Below are positions 14,157 through 16,489 of a stretch of DNA of 64,000 nucleotides, piece by piece. Each line of letters begins with the position of its first letter. Position 1 is the first letter of the stretch. Source of the stretch: Bryobacterales bacterium (GTDB lineage: Bacteria; Acidobacteriota; Terriglobia; Bryobacterales; UBA6623); assembly GCA_965263255.1 (NCBI GenBank), contig CBDHHA010000008.1, forward strand, positions 3,525,987 to 3,589,986, given 5' to 3'. The notes under the pieces were generated by a model. That model did no database searches. It was given only the letters and a program-made list of their open reading frames with translations, and was not told the origin of the DNA. The translations under genes were made by a program, and so were the position numbers.

Positions 14157-14419
14157 CGGGATCGACCCGCGCCTCCGAGCACCGCCTTCATCGTCAGGAC
14201 GGCGTTGGAGCCTTCCTCGTGTTCGGGAAAAACGCCTAGGCTACGGGACCGAACGCCACCCCTTGCCCGGCGGGCGTTTACACGATTGTACCACCAAGCC
14301 CTTTGCCCGCGGCGCGAATCGAGGGCCGCAATCGTTCAGCAGCAGCCCGAGGCAGCCGGGACCTGCTAGAATTCTGGGAGCCGCGGCTGAAAGCGGCCTG
14401 CAGAAGGAAAGGGAACTCC

Positions 14420-14932
14420 ATGAGCAGCATCTCACGACGCGCGGTCATCCTGTCCGGCGCAGCAGCGGCAATGTCCGGCAGGGCGGTCGCGGCGCTGGCG
14501 GTCGGTGACGCGGCACCTGACTTCACGCTTCCGGGCACGGACGGGAAGGACGCGAAGCTGTCGGCCTTCCGCGGCAAGAAGAATGTCGTGCTGGCCTTCT
14601 TCCCCAAGGCGTTCACCGGTGGTTGAACGCGCGAGATGAAGGGATACCAGGCTGGTATCCAGCAGTTCACCGACTCCGACTCCGTTGTGTTCGGCGTCAG
14701 CACCGACCCGCTCGACACGAACAAGAAGTTCGCCGAGTCGCTGAGCCTCGAGTTCGCGATCCTCAGCGACGAGGGCGGCGCGGTCTCGAAGAGCTTCGGC
14801 GTCCTCAACGAGCGGATGATGTCCAACCGGACGACGTTCGTCATCGGCAAGGACGGGAACATCGCGCACGTCGAGAGCGGTTCGGGTGCCATCGACCCGG
14901 CCGGCGCGGCAGCCGCCTGCAGCAAGCTCTAG
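14420..14932 (+). CDS. AhpE-like 1-Cys peroxiredoxin, candidate selenoprotein (in-frame UGA 14624-14626 read as Sec), Tat-like signal
   Basis: ORFs 14303..14626 and 14636..14932 are in the same frame (offset 333 nt). The joined protein reads ...[17 protein letters not shown]-[TGA]-TREMKGYQ...FGVSTDP...FAILSD...[11 protein letters not shown]. The TGA sits at the Cys of the Prx motif P-x-x-x-T-x-x-C. The probable start is ATG 14420, preceded by AAGGAAAGGGA, and the N-terminus is [24 protein letters not shown]. Confidence 0.65.
14637..14669 (+). promoter_or_regulatory. Putative bacterial SECIS-like hairpin downstream of the UGA
   Basis: The upper stem 14642-14649 (GGATACCA) pairs with 14653-14660 (TGGTATCC), giving 8 bp. 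The apical loop is GGC, or AGGCU if the closing A-U opens. A possible lower stem is 14637-14640 (TGAA) with 14666-14669 (TTCA). The upper stem starts 15 nt after the UGA. Confidence 0.45.
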
Positions 14933-14986
14933 CGGAACCTCCGCACTCGGTCGGACGGCGGGCCCGCCATTACGTCGGCTCGCCGC

Positions 14987-16176
<1,190 letters not shown>

Positions 16177-16412
16177 GACCCCCTCAGTTTCCCCCAACCG
16201 CCGACGGACGCGCAAAGCGAGAGGGCCCGGCCGAAGAGCCGTCGCAGGCTGGCGGGATCGCAATACCAGGGATCGGTCGCCCGGGACCGAGTCGCGGCCC
16301 GCCATGACTCCGAGCCAAGCGCCTCCCTTCAGCGGCCACCATCGAGTCCGCCAGGGCGAGCTCAACGCGCAAAGTGCGAGTCTCGACGTGGTGTAGAATG
16401 ACCTTTAGGCGT

Positions 16413-16489
16413 GCGCTCGTAGCTCAGCTGGATAGAGCGTCTGGCTACGGACCAGAAGGCCGGGGGTTCGAATCCTCCCGAGCGCGCCA
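16413..16489 (+). tRNA. tRNA-Arg (anticodon ACG), CCA encoded
   Basis: GCGCTCG acceptor stem pairing with CGAGCGC, D-arm TAGCTCAGCTGGATAGAGC, anticodon loop CTACGGA (ACG), T-arm GGGGGTTCGAATCCTCC, discriminator G, then CCA. Very similar to E. coli tRNA-Arg(ACG). A TAGAAT hexamer lies at 16394-16399. Confidence 0.95.

Follow-up and report, generated by a model that had tools for sequence, protein, structure and literature searches.

The hairpin at positions 14642-14660 of the window (the whole stretch of 64,000 nucleotides analysed here) is very probably the predicted SelB-binding stem-loop, or bacterial SECIS element, of a selenoprotein mRNA. The preliminary description had proposed a bacterial SECIS at this place, and the interpretation is supported by covariation among orthologues, by a freeze of silent sites, by the loss of the hairpin from cysteine forms of the gene and by the published rules for such elements. 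The features concerned are the following.

14420..14932, + strand: coding sequence of a selenocysteine-containing peroxiredoxin of the AhpC/TSA fold, 170 aa, a single open frame when TGA is read as U.
14420..14497, + strand: putative N-terminal signal peptide of 26 aa with a twin-arginine-like SRRAVIL, from a reading of the sequence.
14624..14626, + strand: in-frame UGA predicted to encode selenocysteine (residue 69), which would occupy the peroxidatic position in the motif PKAFTGG-U-TRE.
14642..14660, + strand: SECIS upper stem-loop with an 8-bp stem, GGAUACCA/UGGUAUCC, and the apical loop GGC at 14650-14652, from folding and covariation.
14637..14669, + strand: proposed lower helix, UGAA (14637-14640) with UUCA (14666-14669), unproven.
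14918..14920, + strand: codon of Cys167, a putative resolving cysteine within AIDPxGAxxAC(S/T)(R/K)L, a motif conserved at the C-terminus.

In the list of open reading frames made with translation table 11, the locus appears as two frames, 14303..14626 and 14636..14932, divided at the UGA. The continuous product matches the Pfam family AhpC-TSA (PF00578) at 1.1e-36 over residues 28-150 of the 170-aa peroxiredoxin. Its active site, P62-KAF-T66-GG-U69, has the form PxxxTxxU, so that an AhpC/TSA domain and selenocysteine (Sec) occur together, as expected of a Sec-peroxiredoxin; PxxxTxxU is the signature stated for these proteins (PMC13188914). Residue U69 aligns with the peroxidatic cysteine of the nearest solved structures, which are peroxiredoxins of the AhpE/BCP type. 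With a score of 53.5 bits, where the cut-off is 270, the protein lies outside the PrxU equivalog (NF040737), and none of the NCBIfam models reaches its own cut-off for the window's peroxiredoxin. Because gene callers split the gene at the UGA and no NCBIfam model applies at its cut-off, such Sec-peroxiredoxins are probably under-annotated in Acidobacteriota metagenome-assembled genomes (MAGs).

In all 19 of the orthologues listed, the conserved (L)KVGDxAPDF is preceded by an N-terminal extension that begins with charged residues and continues with hydrophobic ones, and the N-terminal sequence suggests that the Sec-peroxiredoxin is an exported enzyme. The C-terminal motif AIDPxGAxxAC is present in every orthologue listed, in Sec and Cys forms alike, and Cys167 within it is likely the resolving cysteine. 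Taken together, the putative signal peptide and the conserved C-terminal cysteine make it probable that the protein is exported and works as a peroxidase cycling via a selenenyl-sulfide. Among the orthologues, the predicted signal peptides are of the Sec (export) or the Tat type. Downstream, a thiolase-like gene with a GHPxG-type motif occupies 14970-16180 on the - strand and is divided across frames in the list of open reading frames (14987..15943 and 15913..16365). The sole tRNA of the window is a tRNA-Arg (ACG) at 16413-16489 (+).

The geometry of the hairpin is as the preliminary description had it. The segments GGATACCA (14642-14649) and TGGTATCC (14653-14660) form 8 bp without a mismatch; the apical loop at 14650-14652 is GGC, or AGGCU upon opening of the closing A-U pair; and the 15-nt gap between UGA and stem spans 14627-14641. 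Folding with RNAfold, which had been suggested as a check, returns the 8-bp hairpin in both the minimum free energy (MFE) and the centroid structure. The fold of the single 61-nt sequence has a z-score of -1.2, and 21 of 200 shuffled sequences are as stable. Perfect hairpins of at least 8 bp with loops of 3-8 nt number 16 in the 64-kb window, against 13.8 +/- 4.4 in Markov-simulated sequence, and the expectation for one within the allowed spacing after one given TGA is about 0.0055. The claim that an 8-bp palindrome at exactly this location would be a notable coincidence therefore stands for its placement, which is improbable (~0.0055), but not for its presence as such, as 8-bp hairpins occur in the window at chance frequency. 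On the single sequence the hairpin is indistinguishable from chance; the comparative evidence shows that it is more than that.

A cmscan of 14300-15000 against Rfam at E <= 10 gave only chance matches to snoRNA and lncRNA families and none to SECIS families, a result that is uninformative rather than negative. Bacterial SECIS elements vary in sequence, and we know of no general model that covers them.

The bSECIS consensus rules (Zhang and Gladyshev, via PMC13188914, Fig. 2A) were applied by hand. They call for a 4-16 bp upper stem capped by a loop of 3-9 nt; a G at one or both of the first two positions of this loop, usually in the arrangement N1-G-[G/U]-N-N2 with N1 and N2 paired; a distance of 16-37 nt from UGA to loop; and an MFE of -7.5 kcal/mol or lower (PMC13188914). 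The window hairpin conforms to all four rules. Its loop is 3 nt (GGC) or 5 nt (AGGCU) on a perfect 8-bp stem, the UGA and the loop are 23 nt apart (14627-14649; 22 if the A-U pair opens), the pentaloop AGGCU fits N1-G-[G/U]-N-N2 with N1 and N2 paired, and the 36-nt segment folds at -11.2 kcal/mol, against the threshold of -7.5. Among the UGA orthologues, 92% fold at or below -7.5 kcal/mol, the median being -10.0. All 110 have G as the first loop base and G or U as the second. Their pentaloops are AGGCU (87), AGUCU (13), AGGAU (6), GGGAC (2), AGGGU (1) and AGUUG (1), with N1 and N2 forming a standard pair in 109 of the 110, the exception being AGUUG (A, G); the change of the closing A-U pair to G-C is compensatory.

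Orthologues of the gene are widespread. An orthologue with exactly one TGA was found in all 31 of the 31 genomes of the genus, and 222 of the 401 genomes sampled from the class (~55%) contain an orthologue at E <= 1e-28, with a single TGA in about 90% of the matches listed from the class-level search. The full-length reading frame continues across the UGA in over 100 genomes, with identities of 45-94%. The close relatives are MAGs of Bryobacterales, Terriglobia, Thermoanaerobaculia and Holophagales, all of them Acidobacteriota. The set used for comparison comprised 110 UGA forms and 14 Cys forms (TGC or TGT), and the covariation alignment, A1, comprised the 109 distinct UGA sequences. From the UGA to +60, all orthologues can be aligned without insertions or deletions.

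The preliminary description had named compensatory change in UGA-containing orthologues as a check on the hairpin, and the helix is indeed conserved in them, with covariation at three pairs. The five apical pairs are complete in 98 of the 110 UGA orthologues, and the remaining 12 retain four of the five. In A1 (n = 109), pair 30-38 is CG in 54 sequences, UA in 53 and UG in 2, and is never unpaired; pair 29-39 is AU in 107 and UA in 2; pair 32-36 is AU in 106 and GC in 2; and pair 31-37 is invariant, CG in 109 of 109. The observed covariation score was reached by none of 500 shuffles, and 81-84% of cells are paired in the true register, against 32-37% in slid registers. The switch from C-G to U-A at pair 30-38 couples a silent change of the Tyr codon (TAC/TAT) to the replacement of Gly (GGU) by Asp (GAU). 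Because the two changes are coupled, the amino acids allowed at the Gly/Asp position are dictated by the RNA helix: residue +10 would be limited to Gly or Asp, since the second base of its codon has to match the wobble position of the Tyr codon.

The number of independent events behind this pattern is smaller than the counts suggest. The CG/UA/UG state changes 9 times on a quick maximum-likelihood protein tree, and independent pairs number 3 when only well-supported branches are counted and 8 over the best tree; the tree used for this count still contained the protein column of the trait itself. Over the raw 110 UGA forms, pair 30-38 is C-G in 54, U-A in 54, U-G in 2 and mismatched in none, a split that overstates independence, because only 3 compensatory events are both independent and well supported and much of the 54/54 division is therefore inherited. 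Below the apical pairs, the upper stem takes one of two forms in the family: an uninterrupted GGA...UCC, which the window has, and GCG...U-CGC, in which a U is bulged out on the 3' side. The five apical pairs alone are universal. The lower helix that had also been proposed fares differently. The segments TGAA and TTCA are present as claimed, but covariation support is absent among the orthologues, where few compensatory changes are seen, 77.8% of cells are paired and 166 of 500 column shuffles are as good.

Forms of the gene with cysteine in place of selenocysteine provide a second line of evidence. The preliminary description held that the same palindrome in Cys-containing homologues would point to conserved amino acids only; the hairpin is missing in 13 of the 14 Cys orthologues, which favours a SECIS element, and all five core pairs are present in one. 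The mean fold energy is -4.8 kcal/mol for the Cys forms, against -9.8 kcal/mol for the UGA forms. Changes between Sec and Cys number at least 6 on the tree, which means that the Cys forms do not make up a single ancient clade. Two tandem pairs of Sec and Cys paralogues, L091 (G258:C25:839751-841051) and L095 (G322:C25:10898-12158), share 78-82% of their residues and constitute a natural control for the hairpin: it is found in the Sec copy only, and the nucleotides of the Cys copy diverge exactly there. Tandem Sec/Sec pairs were also observed, in genomes G159, G317, G305, G153 and G072.

The single exception is L085 (G059:C1:114953-115747), which has TGT in place of TGA and an intact hairpin. 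Its genome, G059, is 99% complete, and SelB was not detected in it. The tRNA-Sec match of this genome, at 57 bits, lies above the cut-off, at a level where control genomes give false positives, and the case for loss of the Sec trait in G059 therefore rests mainly on the missing SelB. The hairpin of L085 is likely a relic SECIS left by a recent replacement of Sec by Cys, and on this reading it does not show that the palindrome is dictated by the amino acids.

The window's genome, G000, from an uncultured member of the Bryobacterales (phylum Acidobacteriota), contains the machinery for selenocysteine decoding, with a tRNA-Sec (71.8 bits; called SeC with anticodon tca (UCA) by ARAGORN), SelB (337 bits) and SelA (508 bits). 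Across genomes, which were picked by form and not at random, SelB is over the cut-off in 28 and below it in none of those with the UGA form, and over the cut-off in 23 and not in 11 of those that lack it (Fisher p = 6e-4). Among the genomes lacking SelB, three have the Cys form, and tRNA-Sec is also missing from two of these three.

Two further genes of G000, both outside the window, have in-frame TGA codons. One is an FdhA-like molybdopterin oxidoreductase gene (L189; G000:C8:973116-973679, +), with the TGA in SCNRT-U-HAPSVAGL and a hairpin 3' of the UGA that folds at -28.8 kcal/mol over 60 nt and has the loop GGUCUG. The other is a second AhpC/TSA gene (G000:C8:4716657-4717052, -), with the TGA in W-U-PFC (UxxC) and a downstream hairpin CCAGCU/AGCUGG with the loop CGUGC; it probably encodes a Prx-like thiol:disulfide oxidoreductase selenoprotein. 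The loop of the post-UGA hairpin has a G in its first two positions in both genes.

By the proposed mechanism, SelB would sit on the apical loop, 23 nt past the UGA (14624-14626) at which the ribosome has arrived, and would recognise a loop of the type G-G/U-N closed by an A-U pair. Together with GTP and Sec-tRNA(Sec), it would hand the Sec-tRNA(Sec) to the A site, and selenocysteine would replace termination at the peroxidatic position of this AhpE/BCP-like peroxiredoxin. We infer both the binding of SelB and the actual insertion of Sec at the UGA.

A palindrome in a coding region could also be the by-product of a conserved peptide, here G/A-Y-Q-A-G/D-I, without a function at the RNA level. 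The peptide Y-Q-(A/S/D)-(G/D)-(I/L) is well conserved and is partly kept in Cys forms, as YQAGL in L083 and L091b and as YQAGI in L085, the last of which combines cysteine with a full hairpin. The choice of codons, however, argues strongly against this explanation. In the hairpin, third positions are frozen, for GCT, GGT and GAT contrary to the preference shown elsewhere in these genes: Ala is GCT in 87 of 87 cases, against 10% elsewhere; Ser is TCT in 13 of 13, against 5%; Gly is GGT in 54 of 56, against 18%; Asp is GAT in 54 of 54, against 34%; and Gln is CAG in 108 of 108, against 69%. Since silent sites are frozen to the pairing bases, conservation of the amino acids is no sufficient explanation. 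The choice between TAC and TAT, moreover, follows the second base of the Gly/Asp codon with 0 mismatches in 110. L083 and L091b encode the same peptide with other codons, and their helix is lost; synonymous variation is free in the Cys orthologues generally, but not in the Sec forms. A by-product of the peptide is accordingly a very improbable source of the helix.

It is just as hard to believe that the TGA terminates translation, whether within a pseudogene or between two small genes, with the hairpin acting as a terminator, an attenuator or a structure for translational coupling. The two frames obtained with table 11, 14303..14626 and 14636..14932, the second of which starts at an internal ATG, speak for such a reading. 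Yet the TGA coincides exactly with the catalytic Cys position in a single-domain fold whose two halves are both needed, more than 100 genomes (45-94% identity) share this single TGA and its frame, there is no T-run 3' of the hairpin, and the UGA form is restricted to SelB-positive genomes. There remains the case of a UGA that is recoded while the hairpin works independently of SelB, as a generic stimulator of read-through or pausing or in some different capacity, for instance in mRNA stability. In other systems, structured RNA downstream of a stop codon can promote read-through, and SelB binding is a prediction at this locus. We give this reading very little weight as well, given that the G-G/U-N loop and the spacing match the SelB-dependent consensus, that the UGA form is confined to genomes with SelB, that the hairpin decays after a change from UGA to UGY and that the same type of loop is found in the other Sec genes of G000.

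The mechanism and the selenoprotein family are already known, and a catalogue from 2006 already contains Sec-peroxiredoxins of this kind; knowledge of Sec decoding is unchanged by the finding, whose main value is for annotation and as an example. The locus is a clean example of an RNA signal that constrains a coding sequence, with Cys paralogues and SelB-less Cys orthologues as controls. A broader proposal can be put forward tentatively, and we regard it as rather unlikely: that the orthologous group is a dominant exported (periplasmic) selenoperoxidase of the Acidobacteriota, with a SECIS of unusually conserved sequence, UAYCAG(G/U)CUGRUA, that constrains the protein, and with a tight G-G/U-N triloop and, in many members, a 3' bulged U that could reflect lineage-specific SelB rules unlike those established for E. 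coli and Moorella.

Knowledge of Sec-peroxiredoxins goes back to PrxU of Eubacterium acidaminophilum (cited in PMC13188914). According to its supplement, the 2006 catalogue of Prx selenoproteins (PMC1794560) includes an entry named 'Anaeromyxobacter_dehalogenans_2', and the sequence of that entry is 46% identical to the window protein over 140 residues, with AFTPG-U-TRE at the active site and a shared C-terminal AIDPAGAxxxC. The main text of the BSepDB paper mentions neither Acidobacteria nor Prx. The window protein differs from these known Sec-peroxiredoxins in having a predicted signal peptide and in being very widespread in Acidobacteriota.

The best relatives of known structure, judged by sequence, are the AhpE/BCP (PrxQ) peroxiredoxins, among them M. 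tuberculosis Rv2238c AhpE and Sulfolobus tokodaii 2ywn (E 1e-23 to 1e-19). Whereas these solved enzymes are Cys-containing and cytoplasmic, the window family has Sec, a predicted signal peptide and the C-terminal Cys motif. It also lacks the resolving Cys of BCP five residues past the active site, which is retained in a sister subfamily with U-TAEC. This sister Sec-peroxiredoxin subfamily, with the motif FTGG-U-TAEC (L178, L180-L184 and L187), occurs in Vicinamibacterales and other Acidobacteriota and has a distinct hairpin, CGCUC-CGUGA-GAGCG, equally far from the UGA.

As an RNA element, the window hairpin resembles the bSECIS archetype of E. coli fdhF, in that a stem-loop lies inside the coding region, directly 3' of the Sec-UGA, and its loop begins with G-G/U. 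It departs from bSECIS elements in general by a sequence, UAYCAG(G/U)CUGRUA, that is specific to the lineage and the family, and from the fdhF element by a tight triloop or pentaloop in place of the fdhF loop. The fdhF SECIS has its bulged U on the 5' side, while in many orthologues of the window gene (GCG...U-CGC) a bulged U is found on the 3' side of the stem.
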